64,000 nt of DNA from Candidatus Latescibacterota bacterium (GTDB lineage: Bacteria; Latescibacterota; UBA2968; UBA8231). The notes under the pieces are model-generated. The model ran no database searches. It was not told where the DNA came from and was given only the letters and a program-made list of their open reading frames with translations. This document shows, one piece after another, positions 7,695 to 20,782 of the stretch; the stretch's first letter is position 1, and each line of letters begins with the position of its first letter. The DNA lies in assembly GCA_965219385.1 (NCBI GenBank), contig CBDCNM010000002.1, forward strand, positions 2,164,936 to 2,228,935, given 5' to 3'. The position numbers and the translations under genes are program-made.

Positions 7695-7728
7695 TTGACA
7701 TTTGCCGATAATATGCTATATTGCAAAT

Positions 7729-7739
<11 letters not shown>
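7695..7739 (+). promoter_or_regulatory. Sigma-70 promoter (leaderless) with overlapping inverted-repeat operator
   Basis: TTGACA 7695-7700, TG at 7714-7715, TATATT 7717-7722, ATG 7729. Inverted repeat ACATTTGCC (7698-7706) / GGCAAATGT (7731-7739). Confidence 0.7.
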
Positions 7740-9573
<1,834 letters not shown>

Positions 9574-9606
9574 CACGGACACTGACATTCTACGGAGGTA
9601 GGAAGA

Positions 9607-9978
9607 ATGGGAGCGACGCACGTAACGGTCAGGATTACGAACCCCGCCGACCCGGACAGGTTCTGGGAGGGGCTTTTTCTGGTTGACACCGGCGCCACGG
9701 ATTCCCTGGCGCCCAGGCCGCACCTGGAAGCCATCGGCCTCAAACCCGAGGGGAAACGCGTGTATGAACTGGCCGATGGCAGCGAGATCGCAGTGGACGT
9801 CGCCGTTGCCAAGATTGAGTTCATGGGCGAGTTCGTCGGCGGGACGATCATCTTTGGTGAGGCTGACGCGGAGCCGCTTTTGGGTGTGACGGCGCTGGAA
9901 TCCGTCGGCATCGAGGTGGACCCGCTGAATCAGCGGTTGAAGAGGCTGCCGGCCGTGCGGCTCAAGGGGCTGGCGTGA
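9607..9978 (+). CDS. Clan AA (retropepsin-like) aspartic protease
   Basis: LVDTGATDS catalytic motif, YELADG, PLLGVTALE. GTGA overlap with hsdS. Confidence 0.88.
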   Translation: MGATHVTVRITNPADPDRFWEGLFLVDTGATDSLAPRPHLEAIGLKPEGKRVYELADGSEIAVDVAVAKIEFMGEFVGGTIIFGEADAEPLLGVTALESVGIEVDPLNQRLKRLPAVRLKGLA

Positions 9979-11297
9979 CGACAAGGGAGACAACCCGCCT
10001 TGCGGACCTGTGCAATCTGATTGCAGATCCGGTAAGACCCGGCGCTCGGCCAGGAGCGCTCTATCTGGGCCTTGAGCACCTGGCCTCAGGGCGGCTCGTC
10101 CCCATCGGTGGCGGGTCGGCCTCGGACGTGCGAAGCACGGCTTCGGCCTTCCAACCCGGCGACGTGCTGTACGGCAAGCTTCGCCCTTACCTGGACAAGG
10201 CTATCCTCGCTATGGAGGCGGGCGTCTGCACGACGGAGTTGCTGGTGCTCCGGGCCAAAGCGGACATAGACCCGCGGTTCCTTGTCGCAGTCGTCCACTC
10301 ACCGCGCTTTGTCGAATATGCCGTCGCGGGCACGACAGGTGTCCAACACCCTCGGACGTCGTGGGCGCACGTACGCGACTTTGAAGTGCCCGCATTCCCA
10401 TTCGATGAACAACGACGGATTGCCGACCTACTTTGGCTTGTACATGAGGCAATCGGACTATCAGAGGCATTGGTTGAAGAAGGCCAAGCCCTGAAACGCG
10501 CCGCGATGCAGACGCTTTTCACGCGCGGTCTGCGGGGCGAGGCGCAGAAGAAAACTGAGATTGGGCCGGTGCCGGAGAGTTGGAAGGTCTCAACATTGGG
10601 ACAGATGGCACAACTCGAACGTGGACGCTTTATGCACCGTCCGAGGAACGAACCACGTTTTTACGGCGGGGCGATGCCGTTTGTCCAAACCGGAGACGTA
10701 GTCCGATCCGGCGGACGAATCCGCGAATTTGTCCAAACACTTAACGAAGATGGTGTTGCGATAAGTCGCGTTTTTCCTGCGGGAACGATTCTCATCACGA
10801 TTGCCGCAAACATTGGATTCACAGGAATCTTGCAGTTTGATAGTGCTTGTCCCGATAGCCTCATTGCTATAACACCAGATCAGTCACTCAATGTCGAGTT
10901 TCTGGAGTACTTTCTCCAAACTCAACAAGGGGAAATGGATAAACTTGCTCCGAAAGGAACGCAGAAGAATATCAACATTCAGTTCCTCACACCTTGGACA
11001 GTCGTCGTTCCTTCCAATGACGAACAGCGCGAGGTCGTCGCCATCCTAGAAGCCATTGACCGCAAGATCGACCTGCACCGAAGGAAGCGCGCTGTGCTCG
11101 ACGACCTGTTCAAGGTGCTGCTGCACAAGCTGATGACAGGTGAAATTCAGGTCGCCGATCTCGACCTCTCGGAAGTCGGAGACCCCACCGGTCTCCGCGC
11201 AGGACTGAGCCGATCGTGCGAGCCTGTTGTTCGTCCGCCCTTCGTTGCCCGTGCTAAGATCCAACATACTGCCCGACGCGCGGGCGCAGAGGAGTAA
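9975..11297 (+). CDS. hsdS: Type I RM specificity subunit HsdS
   Basis: Two TRDs (GDVLYGKLRPYL; GTILITIAANIG) with conserved helices P..EQRRIA / LKRAAMQTLFTRG and EQREVV / LLHKLMTGEI. Confidence 0.93.
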   Translation: MTTRETTRLADLCNLIADPVRPGARPGALYLGLEHLASGRLVPIGGGSASDVRSTASAFQPGDVLYGKLRPYLDKAILAMEAGVCTTELLVLRAKADIDPRFLVAVVHSPRFVEYAVAGTTGVQHPRTSWAHVRDFEVPAFPFDEQRRIADLLWLVHEAIGLSEALVEEGQALKRAAMQTLFTRGLRGEAQKKTEIGPVPESWKVSTLGQMAQLERGRFMHRPRNEPRFYGGAMPFVQTGDVVRSGGRIREFVQTLNEDGVAISRVFPAGTILITIAANIGFTGILQFDSACPDSLIAITPDQSLNVEFLEYFLQTQQGEMDKLAPKGTQKNINIQFLTPWTVVVPSNDEQREVVAILEAIDRKIDLHRRKRAVLDDLFKVLLHKLMTGEIQVADLDLSEVGDPTGLRAGLSRSCEPVVRPPFVARAKIQHTARRAGAEE

Positions 11298-11302
11298 CCG
11301 GC

Positions 11303-12382
11303 ATGATGCAGCCACAACGTCTTAGCAAAGACAGCCTGCAACAGAGCGAATACTGGATGCGCGCCATCTCGTTTGCCGGCCTACATCGTATCTTGAAGGC
11401 CGTTGCAGATTTTCCGAACGGACTGAGGGCTAGTGAGATCAATAAACTAGTGCAGGAAAAAGACATCTCGCTTACTCGGCGTAGTTCACCCCCAGCACCT
11501 ACGACCCTTTATCACTATCGGAATACCTTGCTTCACTTACGCGCACTCAAACGAGATGGACGGATGTTGCGTGTCAACTACGAGGATCCTGATGTCTACA
11601 AACTGCTACGTGAGCTGGTCCCAGCCAAAGGAGATCAGTCACTATGTGATGCCGCAAAAGACCTGTTTGCAGCACTGGTTCTGAAAAACGAACAATGCAG
11701 GTCACTTTTCTTCGATCTTTTCATGCCCTCGGATGCAAGTTCTGATTCCGTTTCCAGTTTCCGGCAAAACGGTGTTCCCGTTAAGTGGTCCCGACCCCGT
11801 TCCTCCCACGCCAAGGAGGTTATTCTTCAAAACAGCACAACGGGATACACAGCGTATCTTACGTCACACGCAAGTGTGGCTGCGATTTTATATGGCGTGC
11901 GCTACTGGGCACGTGATGAGTTGAAACTTATAGACGAATACTGTCAACGATCTGATGGTGGTACGATCATGTTTCCTGTGTTTCGTCCTGGACCATCCGT
12001 CAAAGGAATCGACTCCGCTGTACTGCAGACGGTGCGCTTCGTCCTTTCTCTACGTACACCCGGTGAGTGGACGTTATTCTCCGTTTTCGATCTCATCGCT
12101 CGTTGCTGCGAAGTGCACAGACAACCGATCAGCGTGCTTTTCGGCGCGATCGACTGGCTGCTTCACGAATGGCCCCATCACACCGTCCTAATTCCGACAT
12201 CTCGTGCCCTCGCGACGCTGACGGTGACATCTCCGCAAAGGGAAACTCTGGAATTACGAAGATATTACAAGACTTCGAACGGACCCTACATTTCCCACAT
12301 TCGCATACACAAAGACATAATAGTTGAAGCTAAGGAGTTGACAGACCATCATGCGCGACATCCTTCAAAAACTCAGGCTTGA
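11303..12382 (+). CDS. Hypothetical protein, probably several winged-helix-like DNA-binding units
   Basis: 359-aa intact ORF. N-terminal LHRILKAV..NGLRASEINKLV...TTLYHYRNTLLHLRALKRDG is wHTH-like. Overlaps the next gene by 32 bp. Confidence 0.7.
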   Translation: MMQPQRLSKDSLQQSEYWMRAISFAGLHRILKAVADFPNGLRASEINKLVQEKDISLTRRSSPPAPTTLYHYRNTLLHLRALKRDGRMLRVNYEDPDVYKLLRELVPAKGDQSLCDAAKDLFAALVLKNEQCRSLFFDLFMPSDASSDSVSSFRQNGVPVKWSRPRSSHAKEVILQNSTTGYTAYLTSHASVAAILYGVRYWARDELKLIDEYCQRSDGGTIMFPVFRPGPSVKGIDSAVLQTVRFVLSLRTPGEWTLFSVFDLIARCCEVHRQPISVLFGAIDWLLHEWPHHTVLIPTSRALATLTVTSPQRETLELRRYYKTSNGPYISHIRIHKDIIVEAKELTDHHARHPSKTQA

Positions 12383-13553
12383 TTCCAATCCTTTCGAGCC
12401 CGCTGCGACAGGTGCGCCCATCCGGGCAAATCTGTCGCCCCCAAACGCGCTGGAAACTCGAATGAAAGAGCTCCTCGACTTGCATCAAACAGGATCCGGT
12501 GTGAAGGCCATCGTCATCGTCGGCGAATATGGGACCGGAAAGACCTGCCTCCTGCAATGGCTCCATAGCGAGGTCTTTCCAAGTCGTCAAATCAAGCCGT
12601 TCTACTTCGACAACCCGGGGGTGCAATTCTACGATCTTGCCAATATGTTGTTGCGCACTATCGGACGCAAGGATTTCGCCAAGTTCATCTGGGAGCTTGC
12701 AGAAGCACATATAACCGATCCATACCAGAGAAGCCTTTTTCAAAAAGGTTACGAGGAATATTTATCCAGCTTATTCCGTCCGGGCCGACAACAGGACATG
12801 ACAAGCTCCCTCCAGGAGGCCATCAAAAGTGCGGATGTTACGACTGACGAAGAGATCGCGCACTGTCTCGCCCGGATCGTTACTGACGTCGTAAAGAAAC
12901 CATACTTCGAATATCGAGATTTCATACCTCGGCAGAAAGGTAGCGTGGTTCCAGAAGGAGAGGAAGCACCGTACTTCCGCGCAATCTTGAAAACAATCTC
13001 GCAGGGGACGGGCGCCAAGGCCATCGCGTTTCTGATCGACGAATTCGAGGAAATAGGTCTTCAAAAAAGACTTACTAAGCGAGCCGCGCACGATTATCTA
13101 GCCACGCTGAAGCGGTTGATCAACCTCGCTCAGAGAGGGCAAGTTGACTTCTGGGTCGTTTTGTCAATGACACCCGATGCATACGAGAGAACAGTAGGAC
13201 TTGAGCCCGCGTTGGTCGAACGTATATCCGGGCAAGAACACGCACTCAATGTCGAAGCCTTGGCACTCAATGTCGAAGCCTTGGATCGCGACGATGCGAT
13301 AGCCTTGATGAGATCACGTATAGACGCTGCTCGGCCAAGAGAAACGGACGAATCAACGGGAGCCCTTTTCCCATTCCCTGAAGATATTGTCTTCCGTCCC
13401 AACACCTACTCGAATCCCAGGCGGCTCGTAAAGACATGTTTTCGAGCGATTGCGCAGGCGGATGCTGACGTGCGGCTACCATTTACTGAAGACTATCTTC
13501 ACAAAATCGAAGATGAACTTTATCCCAGCTCGACTACTAGCGAGAATGCATAG
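12351..13553 (+). CDS. P-loop/AAA+ ATPase (BrxD/Cdc6-like architecture)
   Basis: Walker A GEYGTGKT, Walker B FLIDEFEE, PALVERI (arginine-finger-like), NPRRLVK (sensor-2-like). Confidence 0.85.
   Translation: MRDILQKLRLDSNPFEPAATGAPIRANLSPPNALETRMKELLDLHQTGSGVKAIVIVGEYGTGKTCLLQWLHSEVFPSRQIKPFYFDNPGVQFYDLANMLLRTIGRKDFAKFIWELAEAHITDPYQRSLFQKGYEEYLSSLFRPGRQQDMTSSLQEAIKSADVTTDEEIAHCLARIVTDVVKKPYFEYRDFIPRQKGSVVPEGEEAPYFRAILKTISQGTGAKAIAFLIDEFEEIGLQKRLTKRAAHDYLATLKRLINLAQRGQVDFWVVLSMTPDAYERTVGLEPALVERISGQEHALNVEALALNVEALDRDDAIALMRSRIDAARPRETDESTGALFPFPEDIVFRPNTYSNPRRLVKTCFRAIAQADADVRLPFTEDYLHKIEDELYPSSTTSENA
13242..13283 (+). repeat. In-frame 21-bp tandem duplication (ALNVEAL x2)
   Basis: gcactcaatgtcgaagccttg twice, perfect. 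Confidence 0.95.
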
Positions 13554-13555
13554 CC

Positions 13556-14335
13556 ATGAAAGAGGAGCAAACCTTTCGGAAAGTAGTGTTTCTGGACACG
13601 AATACATTACATTACATTCGGCTTTGCTTAGAGTACGCTAAGGAGGATGGTTTTCAATTTCCTACGGACGAGCAAGCGATATCCAAGTTGAAAGACCATT
13701 TTTGTAGTATTCGCGAAAAGCCTCTAAAGGAATCCCTTCAAAAAGGCTTGGAGACGATCATTCGACTGTCAACGGATGATGTACAAATCGAATACGCAGC
13801 CGTATCAGACCTTGAAATGCTCACTGGGCTTGCGGAGGGAAAAGCACGTATAAACGTGGCCAAAGAGGGTATTCCGCATCGAATGTGGTCAAGATTTTCG
13901 CAGAAGGAGATTCGAGATCGGATAACCGCCAAGGATTTGGCGACTATCAAGGAGCGCATTGATGCTCTCGACTCAATGCTAGAGGAGTCTGGCGTTACGA
14001 TTACACGAACTGACAGCAAACGAACAAACGAGATAATTGAGTTGGCGAAAGGCATAGTTGGTCTTATCTACATGGGCGAGATAGATAGTATCATTTACGC
14101 GAGTGCAGTGGCCGCCGAAGCGGACTATTTGGTCACTACCGATGGCTACCTCAGAGAAACTGTGAATAATATCCGCGATTCGGAGGATCAACGATACAAG
14201 AAAATTCGGCAAAAGTTGCGTAAGCTTATCAGCGAAGTGATACTTGAAACGAGCGGAGAGTTCGAGTTCGACCTCCCCCGAGCCTTTACAGTTACGTATA
14301 AAGGCAAGCTGAAAGGAGTGCAGTCTTTTCCTTGA
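13556..14335 (+). CDS. PIN-domain protein (extended)
   Basis: VVFLDTNTL at the N-terminus, central E (SDLEM), DSIIYASAVAAEADYLVTTD: the PIN acidic quartet pattern. Confidence 0.8.
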   Translation: MKEEQTFRKVVFLDTNTLHYIRLCLEYAKEDGFQFPTDEQAISKLKDHFCSIREKPLKESLQKGLETIIRLSTDDVQIEYAAVSDLEMLTGLAEGKARINVAKEGIPHRMWSRFSQKEIRDRITAKDLATIKERIDALDSMLEESGVTITRTDSKRTNEIIELAKGIVGLIYMGEIDSIIYASAVAAEADYLVTTDGYLRETVNNIRDSEDQRYKKIRQKLRKLISEVILETSGEFEFDLPRAFTVTYKGKLKGVQSFP

Positions 14336-14349
14336 GATAGGCGCTGGTC

Positions 14350-15564
14350 ATGAAATATCGAACCACTGAGCAAGCAGAGTGGAAACACTGGGTAACGCCA
14401 AGGGGTGCCAAAGAGAAGGCAATCCACCGTTGGTATCTATTTCCCCACAGCTTTACCGACGATCTCGTCCACGCGTTGATCAATGAATGGGGACTTAACG
14501 GCCAGGACAAGATCCTTGATCCCTTCGCAGGCGCAGGTACAACGCTATTGGCCGCGAAGGAAATGGGCATTCCGAGTAACGGCTATGATCTTTCCCCACT
14601 CGCCGTTCTCGCATCCAATACCAAGACCGCTACTTGCTCCCGACAGCGGTTGGAAGCAGCATGGCAAACACTCGAACGTACATTGATGCACAACAGCACG
14701 ACGCCCATGGACCGTTCCTACCCGGAACTGGTTCACAAGGCGCTCCCAGAGGGACGGCTTGAAGCACTCGATGCAGTTGCGACGGGCATTGAGAACATTG
14801 ATTGTTCGTCCTCGGAACGGGACTTCTTCCGATTGGCGTTGCTTTCCATCATACCGCGTTTCAGCCATGCGGTCGCAAATGGAGGTTGGTTGAGGTGGTT
14901 GAACCAAGGCGCTGGTGCCGAGAACGTTACGATTTTTTTTAAGGAACAAGTTGAGATGATGTTGTCGGACGTTTGTGACACAGCCCCCCAAGGCGATAGT
15001 TATTGGGAAGCCCGTGTCGCGGATGCGCGTGTCATGCCGGCATCCGATGCGGAGTACTCAGCCGTGATTACTTCGCCGCCGTACCCGAATCGTCACGACT
15101 ATACGCGGATTTTTGGTGTCGAATTGATGTTTGCCTTTCATGACTTGGAAGCAAATCGAGCACTTAGATATCAGACGTTTCATTCCCATCCCGAAGCTCG
15201 TCCGAATCGACCGTCGGCTAGAAGATACAAGCCCCCGGAAGCTTTGGAAGGCAGTGTTCGCGATCTAAGTAACAAGCGTCTGCAGCGCATGTTGAACGGA
15301 TATTTTCTGGACATGTATCTATGTCTTTGCGAAGTTGCCCGTGTTTGTCGCAAAGGTGCGAAGGCAGCGTTCGTCGTGGGGAATACACAATACGATGGCA
15401 CGGCTATCCTTGTTGATGAGTTCACGGCGGAAATTGGGGAGCGGGCGGGTCTCACCTGCAAGGAAATACGAGCAGTGCGGTGGCGTGGAAATAGTGCGCA
15501 GCAGATGGGAAAGTACGGACGCATGGCGGCCCGAGAGAGCGTTGTCATGTTTGAGAAGCCATGA
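14350..15564 (+). CDS. Amino-DNA methyltransferase, alpha order, likely m4C
   Basis: IHRWY.FPHSF; motif I LDPFAGAGTT precedes motif IV ITSPPY. Confidence 0.88.
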   Translation: MKYRTTEQAEWKHWVTPRGAKEKAIHRWYLFPHSFTDDLVHALINEWGLNGQDKILDPFAGAGTTLLAAKEMGIPSNGYDLSPLAVLASNTKTATCSRQRLEAAWQTLERTLMHNSTTPMDRSYPELVHKALPEGRLEALDAVATGIENIDCSSSERDFFRLALLSIIPRFSHAVANGGWLRWLNQGAGAENVTIFFKEQVEMMLSDVCDTAPQGDSYWEARVADARVMPASDAEYSAVITSPPYPNRHDYTRIFGVELMFAFHDLEANRALRYQTFHSHPEARPNRPSARRYKPPEALEGSVRDLSNKRLQRMLNGYFLDMYLCLCEVARVCRKGAKAAFVVGNTQYDGTAILVDEFTAEIGERAGLTCKEIRAVRWRGNSAQQMGKYGRMAARESVVMFEKP

Positions 15565-15650: not shown

Positions 15651-15956
15651 ATGAACCCACAGGTATCGGTATCGAAGACCGCGCTGGCCGCCTTCTGTCA
15701 AGAGTACGGAATCAAGCGGCTCGCCATCTTTGGCTCAGCGCTGCGAGAGGACTTCGGACCAGAGAGCGATATAGATGTGCTCGTCGAGTTCGAACCAGAT
15801 CGTATCCCAGGACTGCTGGGCGTTGCCGGCATGGAGCTGGAGTTATCTGAGCTGTTCACGGGACGCACAGTGGATCTGCGGACACCCGAGGATCTGAGCC
15901 CCTACTTCCGGCAAGATGTTCTGGCCACGGCGGAGGTTCAATATGATCAAGCATGA
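15651..15956 (+). CDS. MNT nucleotidyltransferase antitoxin (MntA-like)
   Basis: [19 protein letters not shown] (GSx10DxD). Confidence 0.9.
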
Positions 15957-16274
15957 CGAAATTCGCTTACGCCACATGATTGAAGCGGCCCGTGAGGTCG
16001 TGTCGTTTGCGTGCGGCCGAGTCCGTGACGACCTGGAGAGCGATCGCCAGTTGGTCTTGTCGTTGGTCAAAGACATCGAGATTGTTGGTGAAGCCGCGAC
16101 TCAGATAACCGAACCGACATTCCTTGGACCAGGGTTGTCGCAATGCGAAACCGACTTGTTCACGCGTATTTCAGCATCAACCTCGATGTCGTCTGGCAGA
16201 CCGTGCAGGAAGACCTGCCGACACTGATCGCCAAGCTTGAGCCGCTCGTGCCGCCTGAATCTGATCATGACTGA
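15943..16274 (+). pseudogene. HepT/DUF86 HEPN RNase, frameshifted
   Basis: [14 protein letters not shown]...IEIVGEAA in one frame; IPWTRVVAMRNRLVHAYFSINLDVVWQTV (Rx4H) continues in another frame after about 16118. Confidence 0.85.
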
Positions 16275-16590
16275 ATGAACCGCTGCGCCTACATCTTCCA
16301 TCATAGGGCCGAATGTCTATCATGTCAATATCACTAAACGAAGCGCGACCGCGATCTGTCGCCAGTCACTACAGCGAGACATTCGAGCCATGATCGAACA
16401 AGGGATCGTGGAAGAAGAAGCAACGAGTCCGACGGACCCCGGCAAACGATACGTATTCAATGATGGATAGCCTGGTTCGGGAGCTATGACAAGCTGTGAC
16501 GTGGAGCTATGACATGGCACACTGTGACAAGCCATCACAGAATCGCGGGAGAATTGTGAGGCGGCGTCTGCTGTGTGGGAGAACTCCCCC

Positions 16591-17402
16591 ATGACGCTTG
16601 ATCAAATCGCAGCGCTTGCCGCGGCCGGCGAATCCGAAACGCTGGAGTTCAAGAGCACGACGGGAACCCGCCGGGAAGCGGCCAGAACGGTTTGCGCCAT
16701 GCTCAATCAGTCTTGGACAATCGTCAGTTCAATGGCAACGCTTTCGCACTGCTCGCACACGCGGAGCGTTTCCTGCGCGACACTCTGCCCATCGCCGGTC
16801 GATTCGAGCCAGATCGCTTCGAGCGGATAGACGAACCGCTCTATCCTCCTCTGGCGACGCGAGAAGCGCTGGCCAACGCCCTGTGCCATCGCGACTACTC
16901 TATCGGCGGCGGCTCCATTGGCGTGGCGGTTTACGATGACCGTCTGGAGGTGACCTCTGCTGGTTCACTGCACTTTGGCCTAACGCCAGAGGAGCTGTTC
17001 GCCCCGCACGAATCGCGGCCGTGGAATCCGTTGATCGCTCGCACCTTCCACCGCCGGGGAATCATCGAAGAGTGGGGAAGCGGGACGCTCAAGATGGCGG
17101 AACTGACGAGTAGCGCGGGCCTTCCAATCCCGGAGATAGAGGATGACGGTGGGTGCGTGACCGTGCGGTTCCGACACGGCCAATTCGTGCCGCGCAGAGG
17201 GGACATGAGCGAGCGGCAGGAGGCAATCATCGCTCTGCTAGATCGTGTGAACGATGGATTGACGCTACGCGAAATCCAAGCGCGACTGGCTCCTGCCGTC
17301 AGCGAACGCCAAGTACGAAGGGCTCTAGAGGGGTTGAGAGACCGAGGGTTGGTGTCGGCAGGTCTCGGCCCATCGGCTCTCTGGAAACACACGAAAAAAT
17401 AG
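16591..17402 (+). pseudogene. AlbA_2 (Schlafen-like) + HATPase_c_4 + HTH protein with internal deletion and frameshift
   Basis: GESETLEFKSTTG...VCAMLN is joined out of frame to REALANALCHRDY...IEEWGSGT and a C-terminal HTH. Confidence 0.85.
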
Positions 17403-17547: not shown

Positions 17548-20487
17548 ATGATTGAACTCAACATCACCGAAGCCGGCTCCGTCCAGTTCCCCATGGTCCG
17601 CCACGCGGCCGAAATCGGCTGGACGCCACTCCCCCCACAAGACGCCCTGCGCAAACGCGGCGGCGAAACCGGGCTGCTATTCCGCGATGAGCTTGAAGCG
17701 AAGTTCGGTGCATTCAACCCCTGGATGACAGACGATTCCATCCGCGCCGTCGTCGAACGGCTCGAAGCGATCCCGCCGACGATTGAGGGCAACCGGGAGA
17801 TGCTCGCCTATCTGCGCGGCGAGCGGCAGTGGTACGATGAGGCCGAAGAGCGATCCCGACCTGTCCAACTCGTCGATTTCGATACGCCCAGTAACAATAT
17901 CTTCCACGTCACTTGGGAGTGGAAGCTCAAGCCCCCGGCCCGCAAGGGCAACCGCGCCGACGTGATGTTCGTCGTCAACGGGGTGCCGGTCGCCATCGTC
18001 GAGCATAAGAATCCAAAGGACGCCGACGCCATCGAGCGGGGCGTCACCCAGTTGCGACGCTACGAGAAGGAGACGCCCGAGCTGATGGGCGCGGCACAGC
18101 TCTTCAACGTTACGCACCTTCTCGACTATTGGTATGGCGTCACTTGGAACATAGCGCGCCGGTCCATGGCGCGTTGGAAGGAACAGCCGGAGGAAAACTA
18201 CCGCTTCGCCGTCCAGTCGTTCTTCGAGCCGACCGATTTCCTGAGCACGCTACGCGATTGGATCCTCTTCTACGTCGAAGACGGCGAGACGAGGAAGTCC
18301 GTGCTGCGCCAGCACCAACGCCGAGCCGTGGACCGCATCGTCGAGCGCTGTGCCGAGCCAGCGAAACGGCGCGGACTCATCTGGCATACCCAAGGCTCCG
18401 GCAAGACCTTCACCCTGCTCACTGCCGCTCGTCTGATCTTGGAACGCAAGGATGAATTCAGCACTCCGACGGTGGTGGTGGTCGTGGACCGGACCGAACT
18501 CGAAGGACAACTCGAGGGCTGGGTCGAAAGGCTGCTCGGCGAGATGCAGCAGCAGGACATCGCGGTCTGGCGCGCCAACTCCAAGGCTGAGCTGCGGGAT
18601 ATGCTCAAAACCGACAAGCGCGGCCTAATCCTGTCCATGATCCACAAGTTTGAGGGGCTGGAGAAAGACGTCAATACCCGCGACAACGTGTACGTGTTCA
18701 TCGACGAGGCGCACCGCTCGGTCGCCAAGGAACTGGGTACCTATCTGATGGCGGCCGTGCCCAACGCGACGATCATCGGATTCACCGGCACGCCGATTGA
18801 CCAGACCGCATACGGAGAAGGTACCTTCAAGATATTCGGAGTCGATGACGAGTTGGGCTATCTCGACAAGTACTCCATCGCCGAGTCGATTAAGGACGAG
18901 ACGACGCTACCGATCCGCCACACCATGGCCCCGAGCGAGATGACGGTGCCGGCAGAGCGGCTCGACCGGGAGTTTTTCGCCCTCGCCGAGATGGAGGGCG
19001 TTACCGACGTCGACGAGCTCAACAAGGTCCTCGACCAAGCCGTCGGCCTGCGCACCTTCCTATCCGCCGACGACCGCATCGAGAAGGTCGCCGCGTTCGT
19101 CGCCGAGCATTTCCGCGAGAACGTGGCACCGCTCCATTACAAGGCGTTCCTCGTCGGCGTGAACCGCGAAGCCTGTGCCAAGTACAAGCGGGCGCTCGAC
19201 AAGCTGCTGCCCCCCGAATGGACTACGCCGGTCTATACCGAGAATGCCGCCGACATCGTCAACCGCCCGATCGTTGCGAAGTACCAGCTTTCGCCGGACC
19301 GCGAGGCAGATACGCGCCTGATGTTCAAGAAAGCGGATGCGAATCCGAAGATTCTCATCGTCACCGACAAGCTACTCACGGGCTACGACGCGCCACTCCT
19401 CTACTGCCTATATCTCGACAAGCCCATGCGCGACCACGTACTCCTGCAAGCCATCGCGCGCGTGAACCGCCCTTACGGCCCGCAAAAACGGATCGGCCTC
19501 GTAGTCGATTTTGTCGGCGTGCTGCGCGAACTGAAAAAGGCGTTGCAGTTCGACTCGTCCGATGTCAGCGGCGCAATTGAGGACCTCGATCTCCTGCTGA
19601 GCGACTTGCTCGACAAGCTCGGACGAGCGGAAGCTACCTACCTCGCCGATGGGGAAAACGGTGGCGCAGATGAACGACTGGAGAAGCTCGTCTATGGGCG
19701 TTTTCTAGCACCAGAGCAGCGCAAGGAGTTCTTTGAAGCCTACAAGGAGATCGAAGCACTTTGGGAGATCCTGTCGCCTTCGCCAGAGTTGCGCGACCAC
19801 ATCGAAACCTTCAGGCGGCTGGCGCGACTCTACGAGACCGTGCGCAACGCCTATGCCAGCGGCACCAACTACACGGTGGACTTGGCCAACAAAACGCGGC
19901 TTCTGGTACAGGAGAATGCTACTCAAGAAGGACTCGGCCATCTGACGAAGACCGTGACGTTTGATGTGTCCACTCTTAAAGCGCTTCGAATCGAGCCGGG
20001 CTTGGATCAGACTAAGGTGTTCAACCTCGTGCGCGGCCTCCGGCAGGAAGTCGAGAACGAGCCGGACATGGAGCCGGTCCTGCTGCCCTTAAGGGAACGC
20101 GCCGAACGCATCCTGAAGGAACTGGAAAATCGCAAGACGACCGCGCTGGCGGCCATGGATCGGTTGGCTGACCTCGCCGCGGAGAAGGATGCAGCCACCC
20201 GGGCCGAACGGGACAGCGGGCTATCGTCGCGCGCGTTCGCCGTCCATTGGGTGCTGAAGGATGACGCCAAGCTGAAGATCGCTGGCATCGACACCTTGGA
20301 CTTGGCGCAACAAGCAGAAGTGCTGCTCGGCCGCTTCCCCAATGCGGCGGTCAGCGCCGACGAGCAAAGACGGCTGCGGGCGGCCCTCTATCGCCCGCTT
20401 CTGCGACTGGACGGAGGCGAACGGAGCCGCGTCGTAGAGCGCATCCTCGCCATTCTCCTGGGCGCCGGCACCGATGCGGACGCATGA
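17548..20487 (+). CDS. hsdR: Type I RM restriction subunit HsdR
   Basis: [19 protein letters not shown] nuclease motif, [33 protein letters not shown]. Confidence 0.95.
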
Positions 20488-20782
20488 CCAACGGCGCGCG
20501 GCCATTTGCGACCGCGTCGCCTACTGGGCGCGGCGATTGAACGTGCGGCCGCGGCTGGTTCGCGTTCAGCGCATGACCCGGAAATGGGGCTCCTGCTCGA
20601 CCTCCGGAATCGTCACTCTGGCCGCCGATCTGGCCGACCAAGCACCGGGATTCCAGGATTTCGTCATCGCCCACGAGTTGTTGCATCTGCGCCTTCCCAA
20701 CCATGGAAAATTGTTCAAAGCACTGATGACCGTTCACGTGCCTGACTGGAAGAAATACGACGTTGGCAAGCAGAGCCGCTAG
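20474..20782 (+). CDS. Short YgjP/DUF45-like metallopeptidase-domain protein
   Basis: [14 protein letters not shown] (HExxH), NHGKLF. Overlaps the end of hsdR, the usual position for this family. Confidence 0.8.

Follow-up and report, generated by a model that had tools for sequence, protein, structure and literature searches.

A recurrent four-gene cassette of a winged-helix protein, an AAA+ ATPase, a VapC-fold PIN nuclease and a DNA methyltransferase: a candidate methylation-based defence system

We describe a four-gene cassette from Candidatus Latescibacterota bacterium (assembly GCA_965219385.1, contig CBDCNM010000002.1), located in an analysed stretch of 64,000 nucleotides that we call the window. 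The cassette is a real four-gene system without a name, and would be a variant of methylation-based defence. Its gene content, the folds of A and C, the motifs, the co-inheritance of the genes, the fixed order of A, B and C beside a mobile D and a natural A-B fusion are established. A defence role for the cassette is probable. The reading that we favour, tentatively and with somewhat less than even confidence, is a methylation-gated immune system in which the PIN nuclease C would cut RNA and so cause growth arrest. The four genes are as follows.

11303..12382, + strand: gene A, 359 aa, predicted DNA-binding protein with three winged-helix domains, likely target reader
12351..13553, + strand: gene B, 400 aa, stand-alone AAA+ (BrxD/STAND/ORC-Cdc6-like) ATPase
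13556..14335, + strand: gene C, 259 aa, PIN nuclease of the VapC fold, bearing a helical insertion and lacking VapB, likely effector
14350..15564, + strand: gene D, 404 aa, alpha-class amino (predicted N4C-type) DNA methyltransferase

A preliminary description of this DNA had reported four intact, co-oriented and tightly packed genes, and the open reading frames (ORFs) on the forward strand bear this out exactly, with a 32-bp overlap between A and B and gaps of 2 bp between B and C and 14 bp between C and D. The same description had judged the cassette more AT-rich than hsdM and hsdR. Measured GC contents agree: A (0.50), B (0.52), C (0.46) and D (0.53), with 0.50-0.56 at third codon positions, all lie below hsdM (0.65), hsdR (0.61) and the genome (0.60). 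A, B and C are each single-copy in the host genome. We compared the window with seven relatives and obtained ratios of nonsynonymous to synonymous substitution rates (dN/dS) of 0.09-0.37 for 26 of the 28 gene pairs, the remaining two being saturated. The four genes are under purifying selection, and these ratios indicate that they are more than chance ORFs.

The preliminary description had proposed a search of gene neighbourhoods for recurrence of the quartet in other genomes, and all four genes are indeed found together in 21 of 30 loci (two of which, L018 and L019, are near-identical). This tally excludes the window's own loci, same-genome duplicates (including L011, which equals L001), four remnant loci and one weak match; its profiles were partly built from the tallied loci, and the genes were also detected independently in earlier searches. 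The remainder consists of seven loci that end at a contig edge, the decayed locus L024, and L020, which has A-B-C with only ~0.3 kb upstream. Every tallied locus in which A-B-C is intact and both flanks are long also carries D. A scan of GTDB genomes returned nine loci, eight with A-B-C-D and one ending at a contig edge, in Nitrospira, Latescibacterota, Rhodothermaceae and Gammaproteobacteria, and a metagenome scan returned 16 loci with identity down to 36%. Searching the full library with an A profile gave 226 clusters at 50% identity; one cluster, P0348, holds A homologues from Methanophagales archaea (PXF53091.1, MCW3130546.1).

Within the host phylum, A occurs in 9 of 168 genomes (six full-length copies and three remnants). 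Other genome samples gave 2/301, 1/176, 1/201, 6/401, 1/401 and 2/341; all of these counts include the seed genome. The distribution of the cassette is thus rare and patchy. We found no relatives of A in viral contigs; the plasmid search gave no match for B, for a distant A or for the PIN of the remote subtype introduced below, and the phage search gave none for D. A weak A match was seen in genome G1141 (E 6e-4). In two metatranscriptome runs, low-depth contigs of relatives cover parts of the cassette, which is not proof of transcription.

The preliminary description had called a wHTH-like (winged helix-turn-helix) protein, an ATPase, a PIN protein and an m4C methyltransferase (MTase). These calls are supported, and the first is now extended to three domains of the FokI/BrxA/SspB type. 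The AlphaFold2 (AF2) model of A (mean predicted local distance difference test score, pLDDT, 84) contains three winged-helix-like units. Compared with 48,161 representative chains, its best match is the recognition region of FokI (2fok; Z 9.2, root-mean-square deviation (rmsd) 3.7, 168 aligned residues, model residues 14-228), spanning only FokI residues 7-270. Further two-domain matches are BrxA (7zge; Z 7.2, rmsd 4.2, 159 aligned), 3bhw (Z 7.5) and N.BspD6I (Z 7.0, 152 aligned). SspB aligns over 218 residues with Z 7.3 and an rmsd of 13.2 (Foldseek E 0.05), and residues 235-338 match separate wHTH chains. Because the Z values are middling, we read these matches as a shared module and not as family membership. 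A triple-wHTH module of this kind has been described in FokI, SspB, DndG and BrxA (PMC10853773, PMC12839542; these and the other papers cited here were available in part, and statements resting on them extend to those parts). By sequence, A has no Pfam, PADLOC (2023 version) or NCBIfam family above cut-off, its 62 diverse homologues give scattered single PADLOC matches only, and a sequence search of solved structures with A profiles returned nothing meaningful. A lead to DpdG found no confirmation: an Atlas DpdG-like cluster matches A at 0.87, and 0 of the 62 homologues match a PADLOC DpdG model at E 0.1. Taken as a model-based prediction, A is likely to be the target reader.

Gene B carries a Walker A (GEYGTGKT), a Walker B (LIDEFEE) and an NPRR motif, of which Walker A and B are conserved. 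The Pfam families AAA_22 (E 2e-10) and BrxC_BrxD (E 1.4e-7) both exceed their cut-offs and both match 19 of 19 aligned B members; the BrxC_BrxD match reaches 31 bits against a cut-off of 22.2, on short stretches. Similarity to NCBIfam BrxD (24.7 bits) is far under the cut-off of 350. PADLOC SspC matches the Walker A region only (E 0.03), and PADLOC DpdH matches weakly over 68 residues (E 0.001). A sequence search of solved structures with B gave nothing meaningful. The window copy of B contains an exact in-frame tandem duplication of 21 bp (13242-13283, ALNVEAL twice) that is absent from aligned relatives and sits in a loop of variable length.

Gene C reaches the cut-off of no family in PADLOC, Pfam or NCBIfam; Atlas PIN clusters match it at 0.90-0.91. 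Its AF2 model (pLDDT 90) is closest in fold to PcrIIC1 (Z 10.5), PAE0151 (Z 10.4) and VapC2 (Z 10.0). VapC toxins make up most of the next matches listed, with the VapC group at Z 9-10.5, and there is no FEN/Exo DNase among the best 50 fold matches listed. None of the 49 aligned homologues departs from the acidic quartet D14/E87/D177/D196, and the motif ExPxRxW lies in a helical insertion that is also conserved. There is no small VapB gene upstream of C, which directly follows the ATPase gene in both subtypes of the cassette (after a 2-bp gap in the window). PINs of the VapC group are tRNA-cleaving RNases, and PINs without an antitoxin are essential in the systems DS-3 and DS-5, according to the available part of PMC13092281.

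Gene D matches the PADLOC profile MTase_II (PDLC03224) over its full length (residues 15-404, E 2.9e-60), as well as Pfam N6_N4_Mtase. Its conserved motifs run DPFAG before SPPY, an order that we take, by the standard rules for MTase motifs, to mark the alpha class and the N4C type. We therefore predict, from the SPPY motif and the motif order, that D is an N4C-type enzyme. All motifs named in the preliminary description (Walker A/B, NPRR, the PIN acidic quartet and DPFAG...SPPY) are thus present. The same genome holds a distant SPPY-type paralogue of D (26%; G000:C2:980362-981453). Distant relatives of D (25-28%) adjoin a type II restriction endonuclease (REase), or a McrBC-like trio, on plasmids. 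One such plasmid cluster (L040:4956-11190; Cryobacterium plasmid NZ_MN657145.1) has, by motif-based labels, two SPPY-type MTases, a 389-aa protein, a McrB-like ATPase and a McrC-like protein; the 389-aa and McrC-like proteins have no PADLOC match and the ATPase has weak matches only. We considered this cluster as a relative of the cassette and rejected it: neither its DNA-binding protein nor its ATPase is related to A or B (no alignment of B with the McrB-like ATPase, best E 17), which leaves an analogy only.

The order A-B-C is invariant, while the position of D varies. Three arrangements occur: A-B-C-D, D divergent upstream of A-B-C (L016, L017), and D-A-B-C. The M and R genes of type II restriction-modification (RM) systems likewise change their relative arrangement. 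A natural A-B fusion of 712 aa (P0308) has two members, from ENA and Logan. It is the sole fusion counted, since two others may be assembly errors: the one in L004 departs from the window sequence at a single base within a G run, and further frameshifts are present in P0061. Between L002 and L004, identity is 82% for A, 85% for B, 83% for D and 48% for C; judged by sequence, C appears to be the fastest-changing gene, exchanged between otherwise close cassettes. In the decayed locus L024, B and C are lost and D is intact, and in G072, G075 and G090, C and D are lost together. In these last three genomes, which belong to one genus, an intact ATPase ORF follows hsdR-YgjP and A is a frameshifted remnant (L047, L048 and L046, respectively); G090 also has a transposase-like ORF and a short remnant of C.

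A broad A profile that did not contain it uncovered a remote subtype, through four weak matches in the phylum of the Rhodothermaceae locus, which we take to be Bacteroidota. The four loci have the order D-A-B-C (MTase-A-ATPase-PIN). A fifth genome, reached through its PIN alone, has the same four genes, so that five of five followed up are complete. Identity is low, ~21-23% for D relative to the window and 13-17% for A relative to main-clade proteins, and PADLOC and NCBIfam recognised only the MTase and a weak BrxD similarity. Profile alignment of main-clade and remote PINs with hhalign is weak (probability 2%, E 0.02); the remote protein is called a PIN because of its aligned acidic motifs (LDTN, E, DS and TND), one hidden Markov model match (E 0.003) and its gene position. 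At its C-terminus, the remote PIN (L059:9491-10576, L060:5694-6758, L061:8909-10003, L062:9084-10193) is extended by more than 100 residues, the last of which read NLxFxHPD. Neither Pfam nor PDB sequences match this extension, which may be a domain for reading nucleic acids. The main clade preserves the predicted recognition helices of A as well as the variable region of D, and the remote clade differs in both, a joint change that could also reflect general divergence. Neighbours of the remote subtype include Por-secretion and TonB genes.

In the window, the cassette sits among the following features.

7702..11297, + strand: HTH-hsdM, an aspartyl-protease-like gene and hsdS of a type I RM locus, the context of the host site, outside the cassette
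9975-11297, + strand: hsdS, directly 5' of the cassette
15651..17402, + strand: unrelated cargo, MNT with a broken HepT, and a broken AlbA_2/RecG-C gene
17548..20782, + strand: hsdR (17548-20487) and a YgjP-like peptidase

Placement between hsdS and hsdR, as first described, holds in the window and is not a constant feature of the cassette. Many copies sit at other sites, and we therefore regard the association with the type I RM locus as incidental; the hsdS-hsdR site is one of several landing places. The flank from HTH-hsdM to hsdS is shared by L001, L002, L004 and L007 and absent from most other loci. Here hsdM (window 7702-9978 region) has an Xre-type HTH at its N-terminus, and hsdM and hsdS are separated by a small aspartyl-protease-like gene, an arrangement kept at 78-93% identity in the same four loci and G409, with a variable hsdS. 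Downstream, HepT and AlbA_2 are broken, as had been noted: the HepT ORF aligns only to the first part of its profile (positions 1-47 of 120), and AlbA is divided between two reading frames. This MNT/HepT and AlbA_2 cargo has no counterpart in the relatives' cassette loci L001-L009. Elsewhere, the neighbours are often type I, IIG, III or ISP RM genes, SIR2, HNH or ABC ATPases, and copies also adjoin transposases and coupling-protein genes of type IV secretion systems (T4SS; L016, L061). A DUF3800 gene precedes the cassette in L003:3761-7805 and L005:6498-7724, and L003 has an ABC/SMC ATPase and a small nuclease-like ORF upstream.

We propose that D would mark a short host sequence as self, independently of A-B-C, and that A would bind unmethylated copies of this site on incoming DNA. 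B would then assemble on A and license C, and the activated VapC-type PIN would cut tRNA or rRNA, stalling the infected cell. RNA cleavage and growth arrest are favoured because C is VapC-like and because in DS-3 and DS-5 an antitoxin-free PIN is essential (PMC13092281, in its available part). The patterns of gene order, fusion and decay may be said to fit this mechanism. The cassette could accordingly be described as RM without DNA cleavage, in which a FokI-like reader and an ORC/Cdc6-type ATPase would convert a missing cytosine methyl mark into activation of a VapC-type RNase, a description that we consider possible rather than probable. That this description takes in at least two deeply divergent bacterial subtypes and A homologues in archaea we hold with the same reserve. 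A complex prediction for A, B and C, with C as the partner, was uninformative (score 0.08, mark 0.32), and we draw no evidence from it.

Several points weigh against the proposed mechanism. The best fold match of C, PcrIIC1, is not a VapC toxin, and a modelled PIN fold would leave the substrate unfixed. The fold matches of A are middling (Z 7-9, 7-12% identity), and A appears in its model to fit BrxA and SspB, which are modification or core machinery proteins, about as well as FokI. Cases of decay are few, and G072, G075 and G090 are probably one event. In the remote subtype, the neighbours of L059, L060 and L062 are of housekeeping type and not defence islands. Finally, an RNase tied to any unmethylated site risks autoimmunity after replication, and a threshold or multi-site rule must therefore be assumed.

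Self-marking and reading could also serve a multi-subunit restriction enzyme, in which the ATPase-loaded PIN nicks or cuts foreign DNA directly. Three-gene NTPase-dependent RM systems of the LlaI/BsuMI type provide a model for it, the layout equals that of the McrBC-like set beside the D relative on the Cryobacterium plasmid, A resembles the recognition half of FokI and N.BspD6I, and the cassette offers no other nuclease candidate. We nevertheless find direct cleavage unlikely: the fold matches of C are PINs of the VapC group, tRNA-cleaving RNases in the part of PMC13092281 available, and FEN/Exo DNases are absent among the best 50 listed. A and B might instead load D for methylation, possibly hemimethylation, as in MANTIS, BREX or Ssp, with C a suicide nuclease kept in reserve and set free once the complex is disrupted. 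In MANTIS an ATPase of the ORC/Cdc6 clade loads the MTase (10.64898/2026.09.23.753747), triple-wHTH proteins pair with Cdc6-type ATPases in SspB-SspC and BREX, and PIN RNases are reported as back-up effectors (both PMC10853773, PMC12839542). However, D is compact (404 aa), matches stand-alone type II MTase profiles, shifts position and orientation independently of A-B-C and is still intact in L024, where B is deleted, and there is no primary effector (helicase-nuclease, PglZ, BrxL) for a back-up to support, so that loading of D seems quite improbable.

A guard role, similar to PrrC or PARIS, would have A and B detect anti-restriction proteins of phages, or DNA mimics, that inhibit D or an adjacent RM system, and then fire the PIN. 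The window copy and those in L001, L002, L004 and L007 lie between hsdS and hsdR, where prrC is also located, and many copies adjoin RM genes. Yet most copies are outside a type I locus, for some the stretch examined contains no neighbouring RM gene, the cassette has its own MTase, and B is an AAA+ and not an ABC ATPase; we think a guard role very unlikely. The adjoining T4SS coupling-protein genes (L016, L061) and transposases would suit a module for selfish addiction or regulation that plays no part against phages, in which the MTase and a regulator restrain the PIN toxin and stabilise a mobile element. Such a module would not need the conserved ATPase or the large DNA-recognition protein, and defence genes are frequent neighbours (addiction and defence can coexist), which leaves this last reading with a very small probability.

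No named system had been recognised at the outset, and we likewise found no match in the searched profile libraries or literature. We found no account of such a four-gene set in the literature on defence systems, though supplementary files, such as the neighbourhood tables that accompany PMC12839542 and PMC10853773, could list it. Also as first described, the cassette is without PglZ, PglX, helicase, McrC or a recognisable REase, no such profile matching A-D. It fails membership for type II RM, BREX/BR, MANTIS, Ssp, Dpd and McrBC types. With type II RM (FokI) it shares a stand-alone type II-like MTase and a FokI-like wHTH recognition fold, but A, B and C have no REase profile (PD-(D/E)XK, HNH, GIY-YIG, PLD, McrC) and the nuclease is a VapC-fold PIN. 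LlaI/BsuMI-type systems, which are multi-subunit NTPase-dependent McrBC-like RM sets, have the same layout of MTase, DNA binder, NTPase and nuclease; in contrast, no McrB or McrC profile matches the cassette, and B is unalignable to the McrB-like ATPase of L040.

BREX, BR, MANTIS, Ssp and Dpd each share single parts with the cassette, which lacks their defining genes. SspABCD has a triple-wHTH protein followed by a Cdc6/ORC-type ATPase (SspB, SspC), a pairing that A and B may share; the cassette has an amino-MTase, a 400-aa B, a PIN in place of SspE, and no PAPS reductase or cysteine desulfurase among its four genes. To BREX/BR it may be linked by the BrxA-like wHTH fold of A, which has no BrxA sequence-profile match, and by the weak BrxC_BrxD match of B; PglZ, a PglX-type N6 MTase, BrxB, BrxL, DUF499 and helicase are missing, the sampled neighbours vary, and the PIN, a core gene here, is only an uncommon auxiliary in BREX/BR as far as PMC12839542 was available. 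MANTIS (Gao_RL) likewise combines four genes, an AAA+ ATPase with an MTase, and, as proposed here for the cassette, methylation-based discrimination of self from non-self. It is described with adenine hemimethylation, MtsB and the helicase-nuclease MtsD in the available portion of 10.64898/2026.09.23.753747; the cassette has an SPPY MTase, a triple-wHTH protein and a PIN and is without helicase, and Gao_RL/Rlm profiles are absent among the PADLOC matches listed for A-D. Leads to Dpd/BRIGADE DpdG-DpdH are weak only (Atlas 0.87 for A; DpdH for B), and deazaguanine genes, YprA helicase and PLD nuclease are not among the four genes. DS-3, DS-5 and VapBC share catalytically intact PIN motifs, which in the cassette come without a VapB antitoxin, but DS-3 and DS-5 are one- or two-protein systems without MTase, ATPase or triple wHTH in the part of PMC13092281 available.

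Current annotation libraries flag the cassette merely as an orphan MTase. If our reading is true, these four small genes, in a compact 4.3 kb, join methyl-based self/non-self discrimination with RNA-toxin abortive infection, strategies that are usually held separate. If the PIN cuts DNA instead, the cassette would be a restriction enzyme built on the VapC fold. If the favoured reading holds, the cassette would also offer the simplest setting in which to ask what the pair of triple-wHTH protein and Cdc6-type ATPase does, a question shared with BREX, Ssp and Dnd/Dpd.

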